A stretch of 64,000 bases of DNA, from IMG/VR virus record IMGVR_UViG_3300044212_000014, positions 10,272 through 74,271 of that record, one strand, 5' to 3'. This document shows, piece by piece, positions 1 through 49,003 of the stretch. The position numbers and the translations under genes are program-made. The notes under the pieces are model-generated. The model worked only from the letters and a program-made list of their open reading frames with translations. It did no database searches and was not told the DNA's origin. The DNA is from a virus (Duplodnaviria; Caudoviricetes). Each line of letters starts with the position of its first letter. The first letter of the stretch is position 1.

Positions 1-3000
1 GCCCAAAAAGCCATTGTTAAATATATGAACTACCGAGTTGGTAAAGAACCTTTCGTAAAGAGAGCAGTCGAACAACAACAAGCAGAGGAAGTTAGAACAG
101 CAAACGAAAAAATACAGAAAGAAATGGCTAAGCAACATATTGTAAACCCTAAACAGACTGCTACAAAGTCGGTTCTATATGGCGCACTACAGGAAATACT
201 GGGAAAAGACAGCAACAACAATAACAAACGAATGTCCGTAATGGCTCGGCTATTTAATGACCCTCGAAATGTATTCAAAGAATATTTGCCAAGAGCTATG
301 TCGGTATATGATCTAGCTGATAAAGCCCGTAGAAGAATGGAAGATACCGTTCAGCGGTATAACGGTAAATTCTCTGATATATACCAAGGATTAGGAAAAA
401 AACATACTGACGAGTTGAATAAACTTGTATTATACGCAGATCAAATTCACCGCGATCCAGTTCAGGTAGTGGGATTAGATGACGGTACTCACCTCGTCCT
501 AACAAAGGACTCGTATATCGAACATTTTGAAGATTTAGCTCAAGCAGAACAGACAGAAAAACAGATGAGAGATTCTGGGCAATACCAAACGGTGAAGAGC
601 GTAGCTGAAACTCCTAACGAAGACAATATGGAATCTGGCCCAGCAACCACCGTATATGCGTTATCTGGTAGAAGTAAGGCGTTTACATCAGAAGAAAGTG
701 CGAATAAATATGCAAATAGTATATATAATACAGAAATAAACGAAACGGTAAACTCAATATCTAATAAAGAATACTCTCAGAAAGATTCTACTCCTGTCGC
801 AGAGGCATATAAAAAATACCGTGACCTTATGGATGAAGTTTGGAATGAGATTGTATCTGCATCTACACAAAATAGACAGTACAGTCGAGTACCCAAGAAG
901 GTATTTGGATATTATCCTCACCAGCATTTGCCATTCGTAATCTACGAGCAGGACAAAGCTGGTATTTGGCACAAAACAAACTCGTTCTATACGGTAAGAG
1001 AAGCTAATAAATACGTAAATGAAGTGAATAAAAATGGTGGTAATGCTCAGTATGCAGAAATGTCTCCGTTCGATAGCATTATTATGAGACAGCAGATTAA
1101 CAAAACGGACAATCTAACTCCCGAACAGTTACAAGAGCTAAAAGACAATGGGTTATTACGTACCCCAGAAGGGGATTACGAAGATTCTGAGAACCATAAT
1201 AAGGCACTAAAGTCCGTATTTAATCCTTTGTTTAAAGATAGCGATACTGCTAAAATAGAAGATGTTATTAAAGCCGTTCATAAGGCCCAAAATAGGTCGT
1301 CAAATACATCTAGCCAAATATACAACAATACGGTAAAGGCCGCGCAAAACCAGATAAAATCAACGAATATTATTAAACAATTACAGAGAATAAAAGCTAA
1401 GCAAACAATAACACAGACTAAGTTAAATGACATGATAAATCAGGCGAATATGCACCATAAATTCTACGGTAGCTTGCTAATGCAAACAGATGCTAAAGGG
1501 TATAGCCAGAATGTACAGAATACCGTCTATAGATATTTAATGGGGGCGGCGAACTACTCTAGTAAAGAAAAATTTTTCTCAGAGGCTACTGCCACTTACT
1601 CAGACGTGTTCCATGGAGCAGACTTCAAAGATCAAGCGGTAACTCAAGAACAGAAGTTTTTGCAACAATACATAAGGGCTAATTATGCTCCGAATAGTGT
1701 AACTGCTCTTGATAACTTAATAGATGAAGCTATAACTTCAATTCCCGGCCTAGGGACTATTCTCCGTAGATTCTATTCCAATAAACCATACACTGATTTT
1801 GCTCGGTCTGCAATATCTATGCAGAATGTATTAAAGCTAGGGATGTTCAACCCATCTTCCGCTTTCGTCCAGATGGCGCAGTTATTAAACGCCAATGCTA
1901 AACTCGGTGGAAACAAGTTGTTCGGAATGTCATCTTACTTTAGAAAAGGGTTAAACGGAGCGCTAATAGATCGAAACGAATCGAACGCCAAATATAAAGA
2001 GCTATATGATTATATCGGAGTAGATAACAAACACTTTGCTTTAGACTCTGAACTTATTGGTACAAAGCCCGGAATTATGGATAAAAAATTACTATTTGGG
2101 AAATCCCTAAATGATTTTGCAAATAAGTCCATGTTTTTCTTTAACTTGGGCGACCAAGGCGCTAGAAAGGCCACGGCAATAGGAGCTTACTTAAAGGGGC
2201 AAGACCAGTTTTCAGCGATATCAGCAGAGAATAAAAATAAAATGTTACAAAAAGCTACGGCAAAATGGGAATCAGCAAGGCGAAAGGCCATTGAGAATAA
2301 AGAAAGTTTCTCGGAAGCTAAGCCTACGATGGATTCTATACGGAAAGATTTTACGTTTAAATATGCAAAAGATATCGTAACAGACACCAACTTTGACTAT
2401 TCCGTAGTTAATACTCCGCTTGCAATGACACAGCTAGGGTTAACTGGGAAGTTATTACTACAGTTCAAAAAATACCCTATATTTACTCTTAACTTCCTGC
2501 GCCACAACAACATGGAAGAAAATGTTCGGTTCCTCGTCCCGATGATGGTATTATCTGGTGTACTAGGGATGCCAGCCGCCAACTTCTTTGACGATGCGTC
2601 GGACAAAATAACAGGGCATAGCCCAATACTAGCAATGAAGAAAGCAATGATAACATGGGCTGGTGATAGCCCCACGAAGAAAGCACTTGTAAACGTTGCT
2701 ATGTACGGTGCGCCATCTCTTGCCAACATAAATCTCTCTGGTCGGATAGGATTAGGAGATGCAGTTGCACTTGATCTTGGGCCTACAGTAAGCACTATTG
2801 ACAATATCTTGCAAGGTAGAGGAGTTGTAAAATCACTAGCTCCTAGAGCTGGTTCATTAGACTCTATTATCAGCGGAAAGTACGAGAATACTAAAGGAGA
2901 TACGATAGCAAATCTATCTCCATATGACAGAATGTTAAAGGGGCTTGGATTTAAGCCTATTAGCGAAACGAACGCAAGTGATACTTCGCGGGTTCTTAAC

Positions 3001-3673: not shown

Positions 3674-4004
3674 TATTTTAGAAAAAGGGAAGGGGATTCT
3701 CCAAAGCGCCGTATTAAAAATGACACAGATACAGAAACCGCTATTATGGATAGCCGTAACATACGTGTTTGTCCTATTGCTAATAATTGTGGTTTGGATT
3801 TCATTCTGGTTTATTGATTACGCGCAATCTGGGGTAGCCAACTTACAGATTCTATTATCATTCTTTAATTCAATGAAAGACCCGACCATGGTTGGCTGTG
3901 TAACATTTATTCTAGGTCTATTTACAGACAGAGATCATGACGGGGTGTTGGACATTAACGAAGAGGAATACGGAGGTAATAATGTACAAAGTAATAGACA
4001 TTAG
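3663..4004 (+). CDS. Putative holin
   Basis: Two hydrophobic segments; immediately upstream of the endolysin. Confidence 0.55.
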   Translation: MMNNILEKGKGILQSAVLKMTQIQKPLLWIAVTYVFVLLLIIVVWISFWFIDYAQSGVANLQILLSFFNSMKDPTMVGCVTFILGLFTDRDHDGVLDINEEEYGGNNVQSNRH

Positions 4005-4575
4005 TGATTGGCAAGAAGGGATTAGTTTCCAGAGCATTGTGGACGATGGTATAAATGGAGTTATTATAAAGATAACAGAAGGCACCAGCATCACAGATAA
4101 CTTCCATTCTTTTTTACAATCAGCCAAAGAATATAATATTCCGTGGGGAGTATACTGCTACGCTCACGCTCAAAACGTAGATGAAGCTACCGAGGAAGCA
4201 AACGAGGTGTTATATATCTTACAGGGAGAGGTACCCCCTATGGGTATATGGTATGACGTAGAAGACCCAGAATGCTTCGAAGATGGAGTAGACACAACCG
4301 CGGTATGCTCTGCTTTTATTGTGTATTGTAACGCCGCAGGTTATAAAGCTGGAATTTATACTTCGTCATTAAAATGTACCGCATACATGACAAACTCTAT
4401 CAGACCAGACCTATTAGCTGATTATGTGAACTATTGGATTGCCGATTATCGGGGATACAATGGGTTTAAACAGTCTTTCCCGTATAACGCCGTAGCTGGG
4501 TGGCAATATACAGAATCATATAACCTAGATGGTAAAAATGTTGATATGAGTTATTGGTACGCCGAGCTAGAATAA
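3982..4575 (+). CDS. Endolysin, glycoside hydrolase family 25 muramidase
   Basis: VIDISDWQ, GVIIKITEG, GVYCY, YDVED, WIADY, GWQYT motifs; GGAGG RBS gives start 3982. Confidence 0.9.
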   Translation: MYKVIDISDWQEGISFQSIVDDGINGVIIKITEGTSITDNFHSFLQSAKEYNIPWGVYCYAHAQNVDEATEEANEVLYILQGEVPPMGIWYDVEDPECFEDGVDTTAVCSAFIVYCNAAGYKAGIYTSSLKCTAYMTNSIRPDLLADYVNYWIADYRGYNGFKQSFPYNAVAGWQYTESYNLDGKNVDMSYWYAELE

Positions 4576-4585
4576 GGGGGCAATA

Positions 4586-5014
4586 ATGAATGTTAATACG
4601 AAGAAAGTTTGTTACATTATTGGTGTTATTCTCATTGTTATCGCCTTCGGTATATTTATGCGCGGATACTATAGCGACAGAGCAGAATCAGACGGTAACG
4701 ATGCAATTAACACAGTACAACAGATTGAAAGAAATAACCAATCAGCAAGAGATGAAAATACAGAAGCTAACAGCCTTAATGAATCTATTGGAACAGAACT
4801 CGACGCAGGACAAACAGACGTTAGTGGAGCTACAGAATCAGTTGGACGACTGCAAGACTCGGCTAGCGAACGCGCAGGAATTATTAGCCAAGCAAAAGAT
4901 GGACTTGCAGACAGTCAACTACTTATTGACGAAGAACGAAGCATCTTTGCAGACATTGACAGAGCAAATAAAATCACTACAGAACAAAATAGCGACACTC
5001 CGTCGTCAACGTGA
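4586..5014 (+). CDS. Spanin-like protein with N-terminal TM helix
   Basis: N-terminal TM segment, acidic extended region, follows endolysin, overlapped by the next ORF. Confidence 0.55.
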   Translation: MNVNTKKVCYIIGVILIVIAFGIFMRGYYSDRAESDGNDAINTVQQIERNNQSARDENTEANSLNESIGTELDAGQTDVSGATESVGRLQDSASERAGIISQAKDGLADSQLLIDEERSIFADIDRANKITTEQNSDTPSST

Positions 5015-5192: not shown

Positions 5193-5220
5193 ACCCTCCC
5201 GTAAAAAGGAGGGTTTTTAT
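5193..5220 (+). terminator. Rho-independent terminator after lysis module
   Basis: ACCCTCC/GGAGGGT stem followed by TTTTAT. Confidence 0.8.
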
Positions 5221-5247: not shown

Positions 5248-5276
5248 TTGACAAAATGTTGTTTTTGTGTTATAAT
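5248..5276 (+). promoter_or_regulatory. Sigma70-type promoter
   Basis: TTGACA-17-TATAAT with extended -10 TG. Confidence 0.75.
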
Positions 5277-5373
5277 ATGTTATGTAAAGAGATAAAATAG
5301 GATAAAACTATATATTGTATATTGACAGTAAAATAAGTGACGAAAAATCAATATATAGAATAAAATAAAATAC

Positions 5374-5402
5374 TTGACAAAAGATTTGTTTTATGGTATA
5401 AT
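5374..5402 (+). promoter_or_regulatory. Sigma70-type promoter for the RNA locus
   Basis: TTGACA-17-TATAAT with TG, 12 nt before tRNA-Leu. Confidence 0.85.
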
Positions 5403-5414
5403 ATAACTAACCGT

Positions 5415-5492
5415 GGGAGCATGGTGCAACTGGCAGACACAACTGGTTTAAGCCCAGTACAATTAAGAGTTCGAATCTCTTTGCTCCTACCA
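5415..5492 (+). tRNA. trnL: tRNA-Leu(TAA), short variable loop
   Basis: Cloverleaf GGGAGCA/TGCTCCT, anticodon arm ACTGG-ttTAAgc-CCAGT, T-loop TTCGAAT, encoded CCA. Confidence 0.9.
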
Positions 5493-5495
5493 CGC

Positions 5496-5579
5496 GGGGA
5501 CGTGAATGGTTTCGACATGGAATAATGCCGCTTGACGGAGATTCTATGGACAAGGGTTCGAATCCCTTCGTCTCCACCA
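5496..5579 (+). ncRNA. Mini-tmRNA: tRNA-like domain only, no mRNA-like domain
   Basis: GGGGACG/CGTCTCC-A-CCA acceptor with G3.U70, tmRNA-type D-loop ending TTCGAC, P2a ATGGAAT/ATTCTAT, GGAC linker, T-arm AAGGG-TTCGAAT-CCCTT; only 17 nt between the P2a strands. Confidence 0.85.
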
Positions 5580-5589
5580 ACAAAAAAAT

Positions 5590-6000
5590 TGAATAAAGCC
5601 TCATCGGTAGAAAGGTTTACTTATAAGTGAGGAAGATACGTGGCGAAGAGATGCAAACCGCTTAAAAATAACATTTCGGAATTAACACTCCGAGGAATTG
5701 CCGTTAGATGGTGGGGGAGTTTCCCTGTTTTATGATTGCTGGATAGAGAAAGATATTCAGCGCCCATCCTAGATGTAACCGTCCTGTTGACCATTGGTCA
5801 GGCAAGGAACGCGAAACTTAGTTGAGTTACGAGATAAAGGCAGACCTAGGCTCGTTATTAGCGTTTAATCATACTTCAAACTGAAATACGGAGTATCCTT
5901 GTTCCCCCATTAGTGGGGGGCAAGTATCACCTTCTCCTAAAGCCGGAGTACCTACAGAGCCTTTCCCAAATCCCTTAGACCTTAATCAATAAAAGAATTA
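5590..6000 (+). ncRNA. Candidate large structured ncRNA, family unassigned
   Basis: No long ORF; many hairpins and a multibranch junction; no terminator seen between it and the upstream RNA genes. Confidence 0.5.
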
Positions 6001-6033
6001 AAACCCGTCCCTTCCGTCACTTGAACTTAGTCC

Positions 6034-6062
6034 TTGACAAATCACTTAGGGTGTGGTATAAT
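6034..6062 (+). promoter_or_regulatory. Sigma70-type promoter for replication operon
   Basis: TTGACA-17-TATAAT with TG. Confidence 0.8.
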
Positions 6063-6107
6063 ACAGATATTCGAGACATGAAGTTATCAGAGAAAAGGAG
6101 ATACAGG

Positions 6108-6338
6108 ATGGATACAAGACAAAGACGGAGAAGATACCCAAAGGGAGATTCCTTTCATAAAGGACTAACGCACGAGGTTAGAAAACAGCACATTCACTAC
6201 ATGACGGATGACCAGTATTTAAAAATAACAAAATGCCAAGACAAGGGTTGCCCAATATTCTCTGGTTTTAGGTATTGCGACGCAGAAAGATATTTAAAAC
6301 GGTATTACGTATATGGATGGAATGGAGAAAAAATATGA
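6108..6338 (+). CDS. Hypothetical protein
   Basis: AAGGAG RBS; overlaps the dnaE start. Confidence 0.6.
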   Translation: MDTRQRRRRYPKGDSFHKGLTHEVRKQHIHYMTDDQYLKITKCQDKGCPIFSGFRYCDAERYLKRYYVYGWNGEKI

Positions 6339-9202
6339 ATGAGTTTACCTGTAACTTTCACACACATACTGACTTTTCAATACACGATGGTTTTTCTAAA
6401 ATACCAGAGCTTGTTGGTTACGCCAAAGAACTTGGGTATACCTCATTAGCTATAACAGACCACGGGACAATGACAGGAGCAATATCTTTTTATGAAGAAT
6501 GTAAAAAACAGGGAATAAAACCCATTATTGGTTGCGAATGTTATTTCACAATGGACATAGATGCTAAAGGAGACACATACCATTTAATATTACTTGCAAA
6601 AGATTTACAAGGTTATCGTAATTTAATGCGTATTGATACATATTCTCACGAGCATTTTTATCGTAAGCCAAGAATTAGTTTCGATATCTTAGAAAAATAC
6701 CACGAAGGTATTGTTTGTACAACAGCTTGTATAGCTGGCCCGTTATCTAGCGATTTAAAAGATTACATTATGTCACGGTTAATATCTATATTTGGTGAAG
6801 ACTTATATATAGAAATACAACCTCACGACTTTGAAGAACAAAAAGTGTATAATTATACATTTATATCTCAATATCCCGAAGTTAAAAAGATAATCACACT
6901 CGATAGTCACTACGTTTGCAAAGATGATACCCAATATCATAGACTTTGGCTAGATTTAGATGACGATGCTGAGTATTATTCTTCTAGTGATTATTACCTT
7001 ATGGGTACAGATGAAATTGTAAGTAAGCTCTCTTACATGGAGTCATCCGATATACAAGATATGATTAAAAATACAAAAGAGTTGGAAGATAAGTTTAACT
7101 TAGAAATACCATTTGGTGAACAGCACTATCCTGTGTTCTGCGAAGACCCTGAAAGATATGTTAGAGATAAGATGAATGCTGGTTGGGTTCAAAAGGGAAT
7201 TTCCATGTTGCCAAATCACACTAAATACAGAGAGCAGGCAAATCATGAACTAGAAGTATTAAGGAAAGTCCATTATTTTAATTATTTCTGTATTGTTAAC
7301 GACATGTTGAAATTCTGCGAAGACAACAATATTCCAACTGGCATAGGCCGTGGTAGCGTAGGGGGGTGTCTAGTTGCTTATCTTATGGGCATTACAAAGG
7401 TAGACCCAATTAAATACAATTTGGTATTCGAACGGTTTACCAACCTAGAACGTGTAACTCCATGTGACATTGATACTGACGTAAGTCAAGGTAAACGACA
7501 AGAGCTTATTGAATATATCAAAAGTAAATATGGGGAAGCGTATCCCGTTAGAACCGTCGGAACCTGTGAAGACAAGGCCGCTGTTCAAGCCTCTGCTAGG
7601 TCACTTGATATTGACCCTACCATATATAAGAAAATGAGTAAGAATATAAACACGGTAGAAGATATGCCAGAAAAAACGGCAAGCGATAAACGATGGAAAC
7701 AGGTGGCAATGAAGTTCAGAGGACACGTACAGAACTATGGTAAACATCCATCTGCTATGTTGGTATCGCCTGAGGATATTTGTAAGTGGAGTCCAGTAGA
7801 AAAGCAGAAAGACGATTATGTTGTTTGTTATGACTTCCACCAGCTAGAAGACCAAGGGTTATTAAAACTCGATGTTCTTGGTCTAAAGACCCTTGACATA
7901 ATTGAAGACACAAAGAGACGGGCGGGAATAGATACTGATATTTCCCAATTTCCAGACTTAGATTCACCTACTTGTGCCATGTTAGCAAAAGGAGACACAG
8001 AAGGATGTTTCCAAATAGAAAGTAATGTAATGACTCCGATAGCAATGAGAATGAACGTTAGGGGAATGGAAGACTTGGCAACCGTCGTCGCTCTTGGTCG
8101 CCCCGGCCCTTTAGATTCTGGAATGGTAGAAACATTTTTAAAACGCCGGAATAAACAACTTCCTACCACCTACGACATTCCCGACCTAGAACCGTTACTT
8201 AAAGACACTGAGGGAGTTATTATATATCAGGAACAGATTATGAAGATTGTTCAGGTAATATGTGGATATTCCTTAGGGGAAGCAGATAACCTTCGTCGTA
8301 TTATAGGGCGTAAGGTAGTAGATGAAATGAACCCCGTTGTCGAGGATATGATTCGTAGGGGTATAGAAAAGGGACATACAAGAGAACAGATGGTAAAACT
8401 AACTGATGATATAAAAACATTCGCGCTTTATGGATTTAACCTATCCCATTCCTTAGCTTACGGAAAAACGGCGTGGGTTACATCATACCTTAAATGTCAC
8501 TACCCAGCGGCATTCATGGCCTCATTGTTAGATTACAACTGTAAAGATAAACCGAAGTTAGCCACTTATATTGTCTACTGCCAGAACCATAATATACGTA
8601 TCCTTCCACCTAGGGTAAACCATCACAACTGCTACTCAGATTATGACGAAGATGGCCCTTATATCGTTCTTGGACTAAACTGTATCGCTGGCGTTGGGAA
8701 CGTATCTATTGATTCCTCAGATAGTGACTTTGAGGCATTTTTGGAAAAGAACATAAACGTTAATAAGAAAGCTCTCGGTAGTATGGTTAGGGCTGGTGTA
8801 TTTAGTGGCAATAGAGATATGATGTTACAGTATATAGATTGGATGAAAGACAAGAGAAAGTCTAAGGGAGAGTTTACATATGTACCAACACGATATGATG
8901 ATGACATGGAACAATCCAAAGTAATTGGAGTTAGTTTTGGTGATGTCCTTAGTAAATATGACTTGTCTATAGTAGACGGGATAAGTACGTTTGGAGTCGA
9001 AGTATTAGAAGTTAAGGGAAGAAAGACAAAGACCGGAAAGCCAATGGCATTCGTTAAAGTAAAAGACTCCAAGTTCGTTAAGGACTTTGTTATCTTTAGC
9101 GCAGATTATAAATACATAAAGACACACAAGGTTTATATCATGAGAGTTCGTAATAATCGCATCTTTGAATTTGTTGAAGCTATGCCACTTGACAAAACGT
9201 AA
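6335..9202 (+). CDS. dnaE: DNA polymerase III alpha subunit (family C)
   Basis: PHP motif HTHTDFSIHDG and AITDHG; GRGSVGG, RVTPCDIDTD, LLKLDVLGL, IYQEQIM, YGFNLSHS motifs. Confidence 0.95.
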   Translation: MNEFTCNFHTHTDFSIHDGFSKIPELVGYAKELGYTSLAITDHGTMTGAISFYEECKKQGIKPIIGCECYFTMDIDAKGDTYHLILLAKDLQGYRNLMRIDTYSHEHFYRKPRISFDILEKYHEGIVCTTACIAGPLSSDLKDYIMSRLISIFGEDLYIEIQPHDFEEQKVYNYTFISQYPEVKKIITLDSHYVCKDDTQYHRLWLDLDDDAEYYSSSDYYLMGTDEIVSKLSYMESSDIQDMIKNTKELEDKFNLEIPFGEQHYPVFCEDPERYVRDKMNAGWVQKGISMLPNHTKYREQANHELEVLRKVHYFNYFCIVNDMLKFCEDNNIPTGIGRGSVGGCLVAYLMGITKVDPIKYNLVFERFTNLERVTPCDIDTDVSQGKRQELIEYIKSKYGEAYPVRTVGTCEDKAAVQASARSLDIDPTIYKKMSKNINTVEDMPEKTASDKRWKQVAMKFRGHVQNYGKHPSAMLVSPEDICKWSPVEKQKDDYVVCYDFHQLEDQGLLKLDVLGLKTLDIIEDTKRRAGIDTDISQFPDLDSPTCAMLAKGDTEGCFQIESNVMTPIAMRMNVRGMEDLATVVALGRPGPLDSGMVETFLKRRNKQLPTTYDIPDLEPLLKDTEGVIIYQEQIMKIVQVICGYSLGEADNLRRIIGRKVVDEMNPVVEDMIRRGIEKGHTREQMVKLTDDIKTFALYGFNLSHSLAYGKTAWVTSYLKCHYPAAFMASLLDYNCKDKPKLATYIVYCQNHNIRILPPRVNHHNCYSDYDEDGPYIVLGLNCIAGVGNVSIDSSDSDFEAFLEKNINVNKKALGSMVRAGVFSGNRDMMLQYIDWMKDKRKSKGEFTYVPTRYDDDMEQSKVIGVSFGDVLSKYDLSIVDGISTFGVEVLEVKGRKTKTGKPMAFVKVKDSKFVKDFVIFSADYKYIKTHKVYIMRVRNNRIFEFVEAMPLDKT

Positions 9203-28440: not shown

Positions 28441-29112
28441 ATGGCATATATGAAAGATTTCCCGTCCGCACAATTAGTGTCTGGTACAAGCCTTGACCTA
28501 GCGATACAAGCAATGAATAATTGCTATGGCAACACCTGTACTATAAAAAGTTTGATCGGCTCTATTCGAGCTGGTCATCTTAGTTTGTTAGAACATGTCA
28601 CTGCTACATTTGATATTCTTTGTAGCGAAGCAGTTTTAAAACAAATATCTCGTCATCGCCATTTATCTCCTACCGTAGAGTCAAGTCGAGGTAGTGACAT
28701 AACTGATAATGGGTTTTATATTCATCCTTTCACCGAATATAAAGGGACAACATTCGCAAGTTTTGATGAGGATTACAACAGCCTTTATGGAGAATTTACT
28801 GCTCAAGAATATATTTGTCGGATATACGATAATATCCTATTCCAATATCATGTGATGGTAAACAAAGGTGTCCCGCGAGAAGTAGCCGCATACATTCTTC
28901 CCATGGCTACTATGGTACGTATGAGATATACTGGTAACTTACGAGCATGGTTTGAGTACTTACAGAAGAGATTGTGTAAGAGAGCGAGTATCGAACATAG
29001 AGAACTGGCTGAAAAGATTTACAAAGAATTAAACCTTACGTATCCTGATATTTTTAATAAGGAAATGTTAGGAATGTGCGTAAACTGTAAAGAACGTGGT
29101 TGTAGTTTTTAA
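28441..29112 (+). CDS. thyX: Flavin-dependent thymidylate synthase
   Basis: GHLSLLEH, RHR-x7-S signature (RHRHLSPTVES), REVAAYILP, NLRAW. Confidence 0.9.
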   Translation: MAYMKDFPSAQLVSGTSLDLAIQAMNNCYGNTCTIKSLIGSIRAGHLSLLEHVTATFDILCSEAVLKQISRHRHLSPTVESSRGSDITDNGFYIHPFTEYKGTTFASFDEDYNSLYGEFTAQEYICRIYDNILFQYHVMVNKGVPREVAAYILPMATMVRMRYTGNLRAWFEYLQKRLCKRASIEHRELAEKIYKELNLTYPDIFNKEMLGMCVNCKERGCSF

Positions 29113-42623: not shown

Positions 42624-42692
42624 CTCCCTCATCAGTGCCATATAGCCTATGGCATACGTGAGAGTATGCGTCTCCTCTTCACGTTTCGGGAA
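42624..42692 (-). ncRNA. Type II hammerhead ribozyme A
   Basis: Minus strand: TTCCC-GAAA-C-stem III-GTA/cleavage-TGCCATA ggcta TATGGCA-CTGATGA-GGGAG. Confidence 0.85.
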
Positions 42693-42805
42693 ACAGTTCT
42701 CGTACTGTCAGACGATAATAGATTTGGGAATAAAGTAAGTAGTTTGACGCATGAACGGTTTTAGCCCCGTCAGGCACGAACATTAAACTGCTACCTCATG
42801 TTTCT

Positions 42806-42834
42806 ATCATATCATATTCTATTGGCTCTGTCAA
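42806..42834 (-). promoter_or_regulatory. Sigma70-type promoter upstream of hammerhead A
   Basis: TTGACA-17-TATGAT with TG. Confidence 0.7.
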
Positions 42835-42962
42835 TATAATCTTGTAAAGATTGTAGGCAAGGCGGCAAACAATAATTCACATTCTTACATTGATGATACC
42901 ATACGTTTATACCGTCGGACTTCTCGCGCTGTACATGACGCTCTCACCTCCTTTGTGCGTGT

Positions 42963-43226
42963 CTAGTACCAGTCGTCATTGTCATAATATTTTTTCACAT
43001 CAGCCCCCATTTCAGAGAGAGCTTTTAAGCATTGTAACTCATGGTCTACACAACCTCTGAAAATGATATCTCTTGTTCCCCTAACACTCACATCAATCCC
43101 CTGCATAGCCATCTCCGCCATGGCATTTGCAAAACAATAGTCCTCATGATTTAGCCCAATGCTGTTAATGATATCCCCTAATTCTTCCGGTGTATAACTC
43201 AATTTCTTTCCCATTTTATCCTCCAA
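42963..43226 (-). CDS. Hypothetical protein
   Basis: ORF in operon order. Confidence 0.55.
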   Translation of the reverse strand: MEDKMGKKLSYTPEELGDIINSIGLNHEDYCFANAMAEMAMQGIDVSVRGTRDIIFRGCVDHELQCLKALSEMGADVKKYYDNDDWY

Positions 43227-43482
43227 TTTTTACAAAATATAAGCAATCTAAGCCACGTTCCCACGACCGGATATTTTTGGTCGCAATTTTAACTTCATCA
43301 TTGAAGTCCTCTTTTGTAGTGCCAACCAAAGTAAACTCAATGGGACTAGCTATTTGTATATCGTCGTGATTCATGTACACTAGCAAGGTATTGCCTTTCT
43401 TAGCGTGTCGATATGCGGCATTTTTAGGTACTCTCATATATTCCTCGCCGTCTTTTATGACTCTCATTTCTTTAAACTGCAC
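43216..43482 (-). CDS. Hypothetical protein
   Basis: GGAGGT RBS, GTG start. Confidence 0.55.
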   Translation of the reverse strand: MQFKEMRVIKDGEEYMRVPKNAAYRHAKKGNTLLVYMNHDDIQIASPIEFTLVGTTKEDFNDEVKIATKNIRSWERGLDCLYFVKIGG

Positions 43483-43496
43483 TTATATACCTCCTA

Positions 43497-43850
43497 TTAC
43501 CAATGGAATTTACCTTTTCCGGGCTTAATTACCCAATTCGGATAAAAACCGCCTCTTTCGTTTAGGTATAGAATCCCTCTTATTTTCTCTTGTTTACCTC
43601 TTTTACCAACGATGTTCGTAGGCTGAACAATATTGAAAACATCTCTAATAATTCTTTGTATACGCCCCGTTGTGACACTATATTTACGGTCATCAAACCT
43701 AGCAAATTCTCCGTCCGTCCTAAATATCTCTGTTTGATATGACTTAATAACATACTCATTATCATCCGTATAGTATGCCGAGACAGACTCTCCTACGAAT
43801 GGTACGCTGTGTCTGATTTTATCTGGCATATCTTTATATGTAGTTTTCAT
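43497..43850 (-). CDS. Hypothetical phage protein (SY-x-T-x-I...YSVTT family)
   Basis: Motif commonly seen in early phage genes. Confidence 0.55.
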   Translation of the reverse strand: MKTTYKDMPDKIRHSVPFVGESVSAYYTDDNEYVIKSYQTEIFRTDGEFARFDDRKYSVTTGRIQRIIRDVFNIVQPTNIVGKRGKQEKIRGILYLNERGGFYPNWVIKPGKGKFHW

Positions 43851-43864
43851 TTTATTACGCCCCC

Positions 43865-44179
43865 TTATAGTAATACAGAATCTTGAATTTCTTCCGTTGC
43901 GAGTGCTATTGACTCTTGATTCAGTCCGGCCTTAATACCTTTTATTGCACCGCATACTTTTTCGTAAGTGGTAAATAGTAACTCAATTTTGAATGTCTTC
44001 TCGGTTATAACCTGCCCGTTTTCATGAGTATACACGCCCTCTGCGCCTACAAACGTAGCGCCGTCAATTCCATTCTTTGCAAACTCTCCATTGATAATGG
44101 ATTTTGCCTTTTTAACAGAGATAATTTGTTTCTTTAAATCCTTGTCAGCTAAGCCGACGTATAACGTATATCTTTTCAT
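43865..44179 (-). CDS. PII-fold protein, DUF3574-like / candidate SAM lyase
   Basis: GAT...GVY...G....EKT...LNQESI pattern. Confidence 0.6.
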   Translation of the reverse strand: MKRYTLYVGLADKDLKKQIISVKKAKSIINGEFAKNGIDGATFVGAEGVYTHENGQVITEKTFKIELLFTTYEKVCGAIKGIKAGLNQESIALATEEIQDSVLL

Positions 44180-44201
44180 ATCAACTCCACCTTTCAAAGT
44201 T

Positions 44202-44230
44202 ATTATATCACGTTTTTACAGCTTTGTCTA
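44202..44230 (-). promoter_or_regulatory. Sigma70-type promoter for the SAM-lyase-like gene
   Basis: TAGACA-17-TATAAT with TG. Confidence 0.7.
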
Positions 44231-44530
44231 CTGTTTTTCCAGCCACTCTTTCAACTCGTTCATATCAAACGGGCATTTAAAATCATCTAAACTATTAAAA
44301 CTAATTAAGTCATCTCCTATTTCTGATAGGGTAAAAAAATTGTCGTCCGTAGAATATAATCCAGTTTCTACCATCCACGCCATTTCCCAAGGGGTAGATT
44401 CGTTGAACCAGTGGTTAAAGTGGTCAGGAATATTTTCATGAATCCTATCACCTTCTCGTCCTTTTTCGCCAATCATGTCATTCCATAAACCAATCAATTC
44501 CATATCTGTTAAGTTTTTTAAATTTACCAT
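44228..44530 (-). CDS. Highly acidic early protein, paralog of 41167
   Basis: 22 D/E versus 7 K/R in 100 aa. Confidence 0.6.
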   Translation of the reverse strand: MVNLKNLTDMELIGLWNDMIGEKGREGDRIHENIPDHFNHWFNESTPWEMAWMVETGLYSTDDNFFTLSEIGDDLISFNSLDDFKCPFDMNELKEWLEKQ

Positions 44531-44531
44531 G

Positions 44532-44771
44532 TTAATTATTCCTTTCTTGAAAACGGCATCCAAAACTGAAATATGTTTTATGTGAAGAAATTTCTATAAA
44601 CCTAACTGGCTTATAAAAACCAGTACGATGTCTAAAACCTATAGCACCTAGACGAGCAAGTTCTTTTTTTGTAAGTAACTGCCCTTCTACTACCGGAATG
44701 TGAGATACACAAACCGCGTTTTTGTTTTTTGTGATGATAACTCCATCCGTCATGATTTTATAATATTTCAT
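44532..44771 (-). CDS. Hypothetical protein directly downstream of hammerhead B
   Basis: GAGGAGG SD before MKYYKI. Confidence 0.55.
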   Translation of the reverse strand: MKYYKIMTDGVIITKNKNAVCVSHIPVVEGQLLTKKELARLGAIGFRHRTGFYKPVRFIEISSHKTYFSFGCRFQERNN

Positions 44772-44790
44772 TTTAACTCCTCCTCTACCT

Positions 44791-44864
44791 ATCTCATCAG
44801 TGTATAGCCAGTAACCGCTATACAGACAGGGCAAATGCCCTGTTTCGATTCGCCCACCTGTCAC
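44791..44864 (-). ncRNA. Type II hammerhead ribozyme B
   Basis: ATC-GAAA-C-AGGGC attt GCCCT-GTC/cleavage-TGTATAGC ggttactg GCTATACA-CTGATGA-GAT; loop GTTAC can pair with upstream GTGAC. Confidence 0.85.
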
Positions 44865-45011
44865 GTAGGAAGTCTTTCTGTAAATTCAATTTTCAAAGAA
44901 CAGGTGTTCGCGTGGGAAACAACCCACGTTCCCGTTTTCATACTGGTTACATTCTCAGTAATAGCAAGTTACTATTACCTATCCGACCACTGCCGGACTT
45001 TCTATGGCTCT

Positions 45012-45040
45012 ATTATACAACCCTTGATTCAACTTGTCAA
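45012..45040 (-). promoter_or_regulatory. Early sigma70 promoter
   Basis: TTGACA-17-TATAAT with TG. Confidence 0.8.
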
Positions 45041-45099
45041 GCAAATCTTTTTTGAATGTAGACTGTCGCTATCTGCCGTTTCTACACCGGGAGATTTAC

Positions 45100-45160
45100 T
45101 GGTTTGTCTCGTCAGTATACAGAGAACCATTCTGTATATACGGGCATTGCCCGTTTCGAC
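45100..45160 (-). ncRNA. Type II hammerhead ribozyme C
   Basis: GTC-GAAA-C-GGGC aat GCCC-GTA/cleavage-TATACAGA atggttc TCTGTATA-CTGACGA-GAC; loop TGGTT pairs with downstream AACCA. Confidence 0.88.
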
Positions 45161-45177
45161 CTCTACCTTTCTCCTTC

Positions 45178-45206
45178 ATTCTACCATACTATTTCTTGCC
45201 TGTCAA
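45178..45206 (-). promoter_or_regulatory. Early sigma70 promoter upstream of hammerhead C
   Basis: TTGACA-17-TAGAAT with TG. Confidence 0.75.
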
Positions 45207-45276
45207 GGGATTTTGTGTGCCTGGCGACTGCCGATATTATCCGTCCTTCCAATCTGTCTGTCCCTTGACACTTACT

Positions 45277-45305
45277 ATCTTACATTATTTTGACCTGTTT
45301 GTCAA
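45277..45305 (-). promoter_or_regulatory. Early sigma70 promoter
   Basis: TTGACA-17-TAAGAT. Confidence 0.6.
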
Positions 45306-45314
45306 GCCTTTTCT

Positions 45315-45566
45315 TTACAGTGATTCCCAACCCGTTTTTTCGAGGTACTGGATGTCTACACATCCATATGCTTCTCCTATAGAATCAAGAGGGGCAAAAG
45401 ACGAATCGTTTGAAGAAAGGCCGTGAAAGTAAACCTTTCCGCCCCCGTCCACAAGCCGGAATTTGTGAACGCATTTTTCTTTGATAAACCTTGCGGTTTT
45501 ATATCCGGTCAACTTCTTTTCACCTGCGTTTGTGTCATTGATAAAATCCTTTGTAATTATGAACAT
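45315..45566 (-). CDS. Hypothetical protein, first gene of leftward region
   Basis: GGGG RBS before MFIITKDF. Confidence 0.55.
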   Translation of the reverse strand: MFIITKDFINDTNAGEKKLTGYKTARFIKEKCVHKFRLVDGGGKVYFHGLSSNDSSFAPLDSIGEAYGCVDIQYLEKTGWESL

Positions 45567-45612
45567 ATCGGTCGCCCCTTTTCTAATAACCATTAACTTA
45601 ACTTGCAAGCTC

Positions 45613-45641
45613 ATTGTACCATGTAGTGAAGGTGTTGTCAA
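45613..45641 (-). promoter_or_regulatory. Early sigma70 promoter
   Basis: TTGACA-17-TACAAT with TG. Confidence 0.75.
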
Positions 45642-48197: not shown

Positions 48198-48271
48198 TGC
48201 GGGGTATTTTAATGGCAGAATACTAGGCTCATTCCCTAGTGACGAGTGTTCGACTCGCTCTCCCGCAACCA
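48198..48271 (+). tRNA. trnM: tRNA-Met(CAT), initiator-like
   Basis: TGCGGGG/TCCCGCA-A-CCA acceptor like fMet; CTAGG-ctCATtc-CCTAG. Confidence 0.85.
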
Positions 48272-48272
48272 T

Positions 48273-48347
48273 GCTTGTGTGGCGCAATGCTAGCGCAACT
48301 GACTTGTAATCAGTAGGTTGAAAGTTGGAATCTTTCCACAAGCTCCA
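48273..48347 (+). tRNA. trnT: tRNA-Thr(TGT)
   Basis: ACTGA-ctTGTaa-TCAGT; atypical T-loop TTGGAAT and D-loop lacking GG. Confidence 0.8.
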
Positions 48348-48350
48348 TAC

Positions 48351-48425
48351 ACCTTGGTAGTTCAATGGTAGAGCGCCTGACTGTTAATCAGGAAGTTGTA
48401 GGTTCGAATCCTACCCTTGGTGCCA
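48351..48425 (+). tRNA. trnN: tRNA-Asn(GTT)
   Basis: CCTGA-ctGTTaa-TCAGG; two U-U mismatches in acceptor stem. Confidence 0.85.
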
Positions 48426-48428
48426 CAT

Positions 48429-48502
48429 AGGGGAGTCGTTCAATGGCAGGACATGAGACTTTGACTCTCAGAATCTTAGTTCAATTCTAAGTTCCCCTTC
48501 CA
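48429..48502 (+). tRNA. trnQ: tRNA-Gln(TTG)
   Basis: TGAGA-ctTTGac-TCTCA; encoded CCA. Confidence 0.88.
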
Positions 48503-48745
48503 AAATGGAGGAATAAAAGTCGGCATTCCTCAGCTATAATGAGTGATGTAGCACGGTTATGGTACTGCACTACAGATGGCTAAACCTACAGTGATGTCAT
48601 CATGGGCGCCGCCCCTAATAGTCGAGGGATAAAAGCAGACTAACGATACGTACATCGGGACTTATATTGTATGTCTGATCTATAGACGGACTTGATGTGG
48701 TCTTGATTTCCTTTTGGAGGGTTAGCGGGTTAAATGCCTCCCCCA
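48503..48745 (+). ncRNA. Candidate structured RNA within tRNA array, ending in a CCA microhelix
   Basis: 243-nt insert among tRNAs otherwise 1-4 nt apart; several hairpins; GGAGG/CCTCC-C-CCA end. Confidence 0.45.
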
Positions 48746-48746
48746 T

Positions 48747-48833
48747 GGATGATTGGCAGAATGGCTATTGCAACTGTCTTGAAAACAGTCAAACCGAAAG
48801 GTTTTGTGGGTTCGAATCCTACATCATCCTCCA
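48747..48833 (+). tRNA. trnS: tRNA-Ser(TGA)
   Basis: ACTGT-ctTGAaa-ACAGT; long variable arm. Confidence 0.9.
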
Positions 48834-48837
48834 ACAT

Positions 48838-48923
48838 GTTAGGGTGGGCGAGTGATTAATGCCAGCAGTCTGTAAAACTGCCCTCTTCGGAGTTCGTAAG
48901 TTTGAATCTTACCCCTAGCACCA
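48838..48923 (+). tRNA. trnY: tRNA-Tyr(GTA)
   Basis: GCAGT-ctGTAaa-ACTGC; long variable arm; T-loop TTTGAAT. Confidence 0.88.
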
Positions 48924-48926
48924 CAT

Positions 48927-49003
48927 ACTAGACTGGTGCAACTGGCAGACACAATGGTCTTAGAAGCCATAAAGTAAGGGTTCGAATCCCTTGTCTAGTA
49001 CCA
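48927..49003 (+). tRNA. trnL: tRNA-Leu(TAG), short variable loop
   Basis: ATGGT-ctTAGaa-GCCAT, 5-nt variable loop AAAGT. Confidence 0.9.

Follow-up and report, generated by a model that had tools for sequence, protein, structure and literature searches.

The window examined here, a stretch of 64,000 nucleotides (64 kb), belongs to an uncultured phage represented by a 74-kb IMG/VR virus record with a CheckV completeness of 100%. Between the lysis module upstream and the replication module downstream lie a consensus-like promoter, a gene for tRNA-Leu(UAA) and, after a spacer of 3 nt, an 84-nt gene for an RNA that resembles a tmRNA reduced to its tRNA-like domain (TLD), which we refer to as a mini-tmRNA (Table 1). 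Transcription from this promoter is predicted to start about 5 nt ahead of the tRNA, and the tRNA and the mini-tmRNA are probably co-transcribed. The promoter shows no differences in three variant assemblies of the same region. Together with it, two other promoters with 12/12 hexamer matches, a 17-nt spacer and a TG extension are found inside 800 nt, at 5248-5276 and 6034-6062 (+); the one at 5248-5276 has no obvious product ahead of the promoter at 5374-5402.

Table 1. Features of the mini-tmRNA locus and of the RNA itself, in window positions
Feature	Position	Strand	Basis or remark
GH25 endolysin	3937-4575		upstream side, with spanin-like genes
Terminator	5193-5214		after the endolysin and spanin-like genes
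Predicted promoter, TTGACA-17-TG-n-TATAAT, sigma-70/sigmaA-type	5374-5402	+	12/12 hexamer matches plus TG extension
tRNA-Leu(UAA)	5415-5492	+	ARAGORN; Rfam tRNA, 49.8 bits; ends in CCA
Mini-tmRNA (tRNA-like domain only)	5496-5579	+	Rfam, family model R1, covariation, three other assemblies
Acceptor stem, 5' strand GGGGACG	5496-5502	+	pairs with 5569-5575, 7 bp
G3·U70 pair	5498/5573	+	read from sequence
Stemless D-loop region ending UUCGAC	5503-5516	+	aligned to Rfam tmRNA consensus
P2a helix, 7 bp	5517-5523 with 5541-5547	+	RNAfold
Cap, 17 nt, in place of pseudoknots and tag frame	5524-5540	+	
Cap hairpin, 3 bp	5528-5530 with 5536-5538	+	RNAfold
GGAC linker	5548-5551	+	Rfam alignment
T arm	5552-5568	+	stem 5552-5556 with 5564-5568, loop UUCGAAU; Rfam alignment
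Acceptor stem, 3' strand CGUCUCC	5569-5575	+	read from sequence
Discriminator A73 and encoded CCA	5576-5579	+	read from sequence
Non-coding tract	5580-6033	+	holds a weak terminator-like site (5710-5729) and the EGFOA RNA
EGFOA RNA (Rfam RF02955)	5763-5868	+	61.6 bits, cut-off 37.7
DnaE-like DNA polymerase	6275-9202		downstream side; Erf recombinase and primase-helicase also there

The EGFOA RNA begins 184 nt beyond the mini-tmRNA, with only the weak terminator-like site and no strong terminator between them, and the folding z-scores of the other parts of this downstream tract are unremarkable. RNAs of the EGFOA family form trimers and dimers, according to a 2026 preprint (10.64898/2026.07.01.735769). 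A general linkage of EGFOA with mini-tmRNAs was considered and rejected, as five other IMG/VR phage contigs carry EGFOA with neither a mini-tmRNA nor a tRNA nearby.

Several characters of the genome bear on its likely host. The DnaE-like polymerase has a best identity of no more than 35% among IMG/VR and GenBank phages, its nearest relatives coming from Bacillus phages, Moorella phages and gut phage contigs, and none of 36 polymerase-relative loci in these two collections has a mini-tmRNA. The sole named relative of the endolysin is from an uncultured Megasphaera. This relationship, the spanin-like genes and the sigmaA-type promoters together suggest that the phage infects a diderm member of the Bacillota (Negativicutes). 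The tRNA-Leu(UAA) is just 78 nt long with a short variable region; bacterial tRNA-Leu usually has a long variable arm. Over some 54 nt it shares 85-87% identity with tRNA-Leu genes of crAss-like Bacteroides phages. A second tRNA cluster (48198-49003, +) comprises seven genes, for Met, Thr, Asn, Gln, Ser, Tyr and Leu(UAG). In an Rfam scan of the whole window, 42624-45641 included, every hammerhead family stayed below its gathering score.

Architecture of the 84-nt RNA

Over its whole length the 84-nt sequence matches the Rfam tmRNA family (RF00023), from model position 1 to 374, with a score of 76.3 bits (gathering score 47; E 7e-28 for the 64-kb window). The preliminary description had placed every hallmark of a tmRNA TLD at exactly these coordinates, and both the Rfam score and direct reading of the sequence bear this out: the G3·U70 pair, the discriminator A, the CCA end, the T arm, the UUCGAC and GGAC motifs and the P2a helix are all present. 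What the RNA lacks is the remainder of a canonical tmRNA, namely the mRNA-like domain with its resume codon, tag frame and stop, and the pseudoknots PK1-PK4 with the extended helix 2, only 17 nt separating the two strands of P2a. Indeed, in the RF00023 alignment 13 nt stand in place of 304 interior model positions, in agreement with the earlier view that a 17-nt hairpin element has replaced the pseudoknots and the tag frame. The same description was also correct in setting the RNA 3 nt behind a tRNA and under a strong predicted promoter (the tRNA ends at 5492). It had named RF00023 and ARAGORN as checks, of which the first gave the match described above and the second, run on the window, made no call for the mini-tmRNA.

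The minimum free energy structure calculated with RNAfold recovered the acceptor stem, P2a, the cap hairpin and the T arm, and departed from the tmRNA consensus in the D region, part of which folded into a short stem of its own. Comparison with known tmRNAs thus confirms 5496-5579 as a natural gene for a tmRNA consisting of the tRNA-like domain only, with predicted alanine identity elements and without a tag-coding domain.

We considered whether the cap might nevertheless encode a minimal tag. It does contain the frame GCC GCU UGA (5527-5535), from which a two-residue Ala-Ala tag could be added, and natural two-amino-acid Ala-Ala tags are known from the full-length tmRNAs of Fermentibacterota (PMC11915505). 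However, the frame is part of a 3-bp hairpin immediately above P2a, and the RNA has neither a single-stranded stretch ahead of it nor a pseudoknot that could bring it to the decoding centre. Moreover, a GCN...stop frame is missing from 21 of the 36 members of the family described below, its position is not conserved where it is present, and its frequency (15/36) compares with 9.8 ± 2.6 in shuffled sequences. A coding function of this kind is therefore barely credible.

Two other arrangements were tried and rejected. A two-piece (permuted) tmRNA is incompatible with a P2a helix that is closed in cis by a hairpin; the Rfam tmRNA_permuted model gave only 19.2 bits on the window (cut-off 47; E 0.13), and this match was located off the TLD. 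Likewise, a separate coding piece was sought in the tract 5580-6033, where a 10-codon frame beginning GCA AAC (approximately 5654-5686) ends in ...FRN, but no model supported it.

The gene is intact and shared by independent assemblies

A reduced RNA of this type could in principle arise by loss of the interior of a full-length ssrA gene during assembly. This objection falls, since exactly the same 84 nt are present in three independently assembled contigs: a JGI metagenome contig (L139) with 98.5% identity to the window, a second JGI contig (L145; 99.2%) and a Logan SRA contig (L146; 99.6%). The flanks of L139 differ from those of the window at 1.1-2.7 positions per 100 nt. Within the tract 5344-6033 a single variable site was found across the variant assemblies, compared with 1-3% in the flanks, and the sole difference of L139 in this tract is a C inserted directly after the CCA, where about 14 differences would be expected from the flank rate.

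These observations also bear on the more general idea that the RNA is non-functional, whether as the decaying remnant of a full-length phage tmRNA, as an attP-type copy of an ssrA end or as an assembly deletion. The idea has some grounds, in that integration at ssrA is common and prophages contain pieces of the gene (PMC9004378, PMC11915505). Against it, the 5' and 3' halves are both present and pair perfectly, and no tyrosine integrase (PF00589) was found in the complete phage record, so that an attP copy of the 3' end of a host ssrA was rejected specifically. The RNA is also located between the lysis and replication modules, four assemblies that diverge by 1-3% in the flanks share its 84 nt without a difference, and compensatory changes occur throughout its 36 homologues. 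We therefore regard a non-functional origin as largely refuted and exceedingly improbable.

A family of phage mini-tmRNAs

Relatives of the RNA were sought in IMG/VR with two patterns. The first, a TLD with just 15-45 nt between UUCGAC and GGAC, matched 23 contigs; the second, in which the acceptor stem and the discriminator were left free, matched 48. Combined, they yielded 36 distinct RNAs of 77-89 nt, including that of the window, and at least 42 IMG/VR contigs carry a mini-tmRNA. A covariance model (R1) was built from 11 of these RNAs, that of the window and 10 other IMG/VR members, leaving out the only published phage example, from Mycobacterium phage DS6A. Every one of 14 other members scanned with Rfam passed the tmRNA cut-off, with scores of 59.8-81.1 bits.

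All 36 distinct RNAs were aligned to R1. In this alignment, which is fitted to the model, 93.4% of cells were paired, compared with 69.5% in shuffles, and changes on both sides were seen in 15 of the 22 pairs. The covariation score was 0.597 against 0.141 for shuffled alignments, with none of 500 shuffles reaching the observed value, and it dropped to 0.07-0.08 when the pairing partners were slid. The preliminary description had made covariation among homologues, with conservation of G3·U70 and P2a, a touchstone of its proposal, and both were found. All seven pairs of P2a show both-sided changes across the 36 homologues. In the acceptor stem, which has its full 7 bp in every member, covariation is seen at pairs 4-7, whereas pair 3 is always G·U (36/36), and in the T stem the two outer pairs covary in 24-25 of the 36 sequences. 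The discriminator A73 is likewise invariant (36/36). The constancy of TTCGAC, GGAC, the T-loop and CCA is not independent evidence of constraint, since these motifs were fixed by the search patterns. G3·U70 and A73, by contrast, are present in all 15 members found solely with the pattern in which acceptor and discriminator were free.

To what extent the short form is confined to phages was addressed by applying the free-acceptor pattern to 185,579 bacterial species genomes. Only two of the 51 matches are true mini-tmRNAs, and both look phage-like: one is on a 1.6-kb contig in a Butyrivibrio MAG and the other on a cyanophage contig inside a Prochlorococcus single-cell assembly. The other 49 were rejected, most of them scoring approximately 40-45 bits or nothing with R1; we assume that the majority are full-length tmRNAs in which TTCGAC occurs by chance. 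Judged by these counts, the short form of tmRNA appears to be specific to phages. A BLAST search of GenBank phages with the 84 nt returned solely matches to the T arm or acceptor of tRNAs and tmRNAs. Five candidates from it gave R1 scores of 33-37 bits, far below those of true members, and four of them are ordinary tRNAs.

The genes that accompany the RNA offer little sign of a dedicated protein partner. No gene for SmpB, peptidyl-tRNA hydrolase (Pth) or an RF-1-domain (ArfB-type) protein was found across the complete phage record, nor was SmpB found in five other mini-tmRNA phage records. Pfam scans of 197 neighbouring ORFs detected no SmpB, Pth, RF-1 or AlaRS, and no release factor, Pth or SmpB gene stands beside the RNA at 30 other loci surveyed. 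A tRNA gene is present within 1 kb on the same strand at 10 of 35 other loci, as it is in the window, and there is none within 1 kb at the remaining 25.

The sole recurrent neighbour is a protein of about 220 amino acids, similar to GP88 (PF17338)/DUF7227, encoded 120-430 nt downstream on the same strand at eight loci (L009, L027, L028, L032, L034 at 4168-4806 (+), L041, L043 and L048). These belong to one phage lineage, probably marine, and the adjacency may reflect synteny by descent rather than a functional link.

Relation to DS6A and other reduced tmRNAs

The preliminary description had presented the RNA as a candidate for an undescribed system, and in this respect it has to be corrected. 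The list of Hudson, Lau and Williams 2014 (PMC4131195) has an entry "Mycobacterium phage DS6A (TLD only)", the 2025 tmRNA database paper repeats it and adds plastid forms that have no CDS (PMC11915505), and the RNA is tmID 11587 of the tmRNA Website (Mao et al. 2009, cited in both papers). Model R1 finds it in the DS6A genome (JN698994, our L050) at 28478-28560 (+), with 63.2 bits and an E value of 1e-13. The DS6A RNA has no annotation in this GenBank record and falls under the Rfam tmRNA cut-off; two IMG/VR members have cap motifs that resemble its own. The DS6A genome further includes a gene for an RtcB-like RNA ligase, gp76.

The two RNAs have a great deal in common. Both are phage-encoded, about 80 nt long, and combine a full acceptor stem carrying G3·U70 and A73 with a stemless D-loop, a P2a helix under a short hairpin and a T arm, and neither has a tag frame or pseudoknots. 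In its full TLD, its short P2a cap, a length in the range of about 65-115 nt, its homology and its phage origin, the RNA of the window thus has the features of the known DS6A-type class of phage TLD-only tmRNAs, and by these comparisons it is a member of that class and not an undescribed system. There are nonetheless differences. DS6A is a temperate actinophage, whereas the phage of the window is low in GC, has no integrase and uses sigmaA-type promoters. The DS6A RNA deviates in its motifs (UCGAC, GCAC and a 3' end ACUA), whereas that of the window ends in ACCA and reaches 76 bits with Rfam. A further difference is its setting, immediately after a tRNA and ahead of an EGFOA RNA.

DS6A is the one such phage RNA in the published record, to which the window adds one from a phage of Bacillota type, under a promoter of its own. 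A full-text literature search returned no survey of TLD-only RNAs in phages, although absence there is no proof. The comparison made here reveals a family with dozens of diverse phage members, in which the alanine identity elements are strictly conserved.

Three other groups of RNAs invite comparison. Engineered TLD fragments (Gutmann 2003; Bessho 2007, PDB 2CZJ; as covered in PMC3985003) have the same architecture, with about 25 nt from the 5' end and about 34 nt from the 3' end joined by a small loop on P2a, and in crystals they are reported to bind the globular domain of SmpB and to mimic a whole tRNA (PMC3985003). They are laboratory constructs, whereas the RNA of the window is a natural gene with an encoded CCA and a longer, partly conserved cap. 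The tmRNAs of jakobid mitochondria and the ~65-bp forms of Mallomonadaceae plastids similarly persist with SmpB but no tag frame; they differ in being of independent origin, and some are two-piece or permuted (PMC3590771, PMC11915505). They are also the sole tmRNA of their cell, whereas the RNA of the window would be a competitor brought in by a virus. Finally, full-length phage tmRNAs, as in the mycobacteriophage Bxz1 group, Bacillus phage G and marine myophages such as Melnitz, are ssrA homologues often found near tRNA genes (PMC4131195, PMC9004378). These retain the tag frame and the pseudoknots and so can complete trans-translation, which the mini-tmRNA cannot.

Possible action on trans-translation

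Bacteria rescue stalled ribosomes and control protein quality mainly through trans-translation, which is also a target for antibiotics. An RNA of viral origin that imitated tmRNA in its entry half alone would give nature a means, needing no protein, of inhibiting or re-routing this pathway. The preliminary description had offered two possibilities, titration of SmpB or tag-free entry into stalled ribosomes, and these are still the leading hypotheses. The model that we favour, and to which we would give a somewhat better than even chance, is that the RNA is a TLD-only tmRNA of the DS6A class that is alanylated, bound by SmpB and able to compete with the host tmRNA, so that stalled chains escape the tag.

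In this model the RNA would be transcribed together with tRNA-Leu(UAA) from a strong, early-type promoter, and would be released by the tRNA-processing enzymes of the host, with RNase P cleaving at G1 and the 3' end being trimmed to the encoded CCA. Host AlaRS would then charge it with alanine, as the invariant G3·U70 and A73 suggest, and host SmpB would bind the surface formed by the D-loop, UUCGAC/GGAC and P2a, judging by the homology of this region to the crystallised TLD fragments. The resulting complex of alanyl-RNA, SmpB and EF-Tu might compete with the tmRNA of the host for SmpB and, on stalled ribosomes, for the empty A site. No degradation tag could be added, because the mini-tmRNA has no reading frame, and the net effect would be a dominant-negative one on the tagging, for proteolysis, of the proteins synthesised in the infected cell. 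It would fall to back-up factors of the host to resolve the peptidyl-Ala-RNA. Since neither SmpB nor a release factor is encoded by the phage, we infer that it relies on those of the host.

Published work on tmRNA is consistent with several of these steps. G3·U70 is described as the determinant for AlaRS, SmpB as binding to the deformed D-arm/P2a face of the TLD, and the Ala-TLD·SmpB complex as the entity that fills the A site and takes over the nascent chain (PMC3985003). Strong inhibition of tmRNA by a TLD-only molecule has been reported in E. coli (Mao 2009, according to PMC4131195 and PMC11915505).

Inhibition of this kind might also be achieved without charging or ribosome entry, if the RNA simply sequestered host SmpB, which tmRNA needs for its stability and function. 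We keep this sponge model alive because an unchargeable version of the TLD-only molecule reportedly inhibited in E. coli as the chargeable one did (PMC4131195), a finding that speaks for titration of SmpB rather than for entry into ribosomes. The strong consensus promoter, which suggests a high copy number, and the lack of an SmpB gene in the phage would both suit it. On the other hand, binding of SmpB through the D-loop/P2a face has no need of alanine identity, and yet G3·U70 and A73 are invariant in 36/36 diverse members while the adjacent acceptor pairs covary freely. This pattern argues that charging matters and leads us to rank ribosome entry above a pure sponge, which we consider unlikely. 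The question can now be put more sharply, and in a testable form: are charging and ribosome entry required, or is titration of SmpB sufficient?

Charging would equally be expected if the RNA served as a counter-defence, in which case all of the evidence for it is shared. The alanyl-RNA might boost the recycling of ribosomes stalled by host defences that cleave RNA or deplete tRNAs, giving productive rescue without a tag, the chain extended by one alanine being freed by Pth or ArfB-type factors of the host. An analogy is offered by the TLD-only tmRNAs that persist with SmpB in jakobid mitochondria and some plastids (PMC11915505, PMC3590771), and the same-strand tRNA genes within 1 kb at 10 of the 35 other loci, as in the window, would fit this role. 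Against this, those tRNA genes are lacking at the other 25 loci, and neither the phage nor the 30 surveyed neighbourhoods supply a release factor, Pth or SmpB. We know of no mechanism by which a peptidyl-TLD would be released, and with no releasing factor travelling with the RNA this proposal is left without one; we think it quite doubtful.

Roles outside trans-translation would include a decoy for toxins or defences that attack the acceptor or CCA ends of tRNAs, or an alanine donor for a non-ribosomal transfer. The acceptor/T-arm minihelix with its CCA is indeed tRNA-like, and in part of the family the gene is placed in tRNA arrays. What has been kept, however, is not a plain tRNA-Ala minihelix but the tmRNA-specific surface for SmpB (the stemless D-loop with UUCGAC, GGAC and P2a), and no recurrent partner transferase adjoins the RNA. 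Such roles are therefore very unlikely.

A more far-reaching reading can also be imagined, which we put forward as a speculation that is rather improbable as a whole. If the invariant alanine identity reflects work on the ribosome and not the part of a passive sponge, phage mini-tmRNAs might convert "rescue and destroy" into "rescue and keep" in host trans-translation at the price of a single alanine, as a widespread, RNA-only counter to the stalling that follows from codon mismatch or from abortive-infection systems that cleave RNA. In the window, a single early RNA operon might then combine the mini-tmRNA with tRNA-Leu and the oligomer-forming EGFOA RNA, acting on host translation.

Annotation of mini-tmRNA genes and other structured RNAs nearby

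Current annotation tools deal poorly with these genes. Rfam labels them plainly as "tmRNA", and so their inability to tag stays hidden. ARAGORN either misses them or, at two near-identical loci, mis-calls a longer tmRNA with an invented tag: on L007 (5905-6228, -) and L015 (11650-11973, -) it reported a 324-nt "tmRNA" with the tag AWDYNPMWVQCSA*. Each of these calls incorporates the 3' end of a mini-tmRNA of 83 nt that is identical in the two contigs. Rfam places the short form alone in L007, at 5905-5987 with 81 bits, and the 324-nt call therefore looks artefactual.

Other structured RNAs were noted on a few of the contigs. In L007 a Pistol self-cleaving ribozyme (6093-6154, -) is located approximately 100 nt upstream of the mini-tmRNA and on the same strand, and in L009 another (5916-6012, -) lies about 2.2 kb upstream, again on the same strand. 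Finally, a small phage contig with an 89-nt mini-tmRNA (L012) also carries a HEARO RNA (RF02033, 170.6 bits) at 794-1003 (+).
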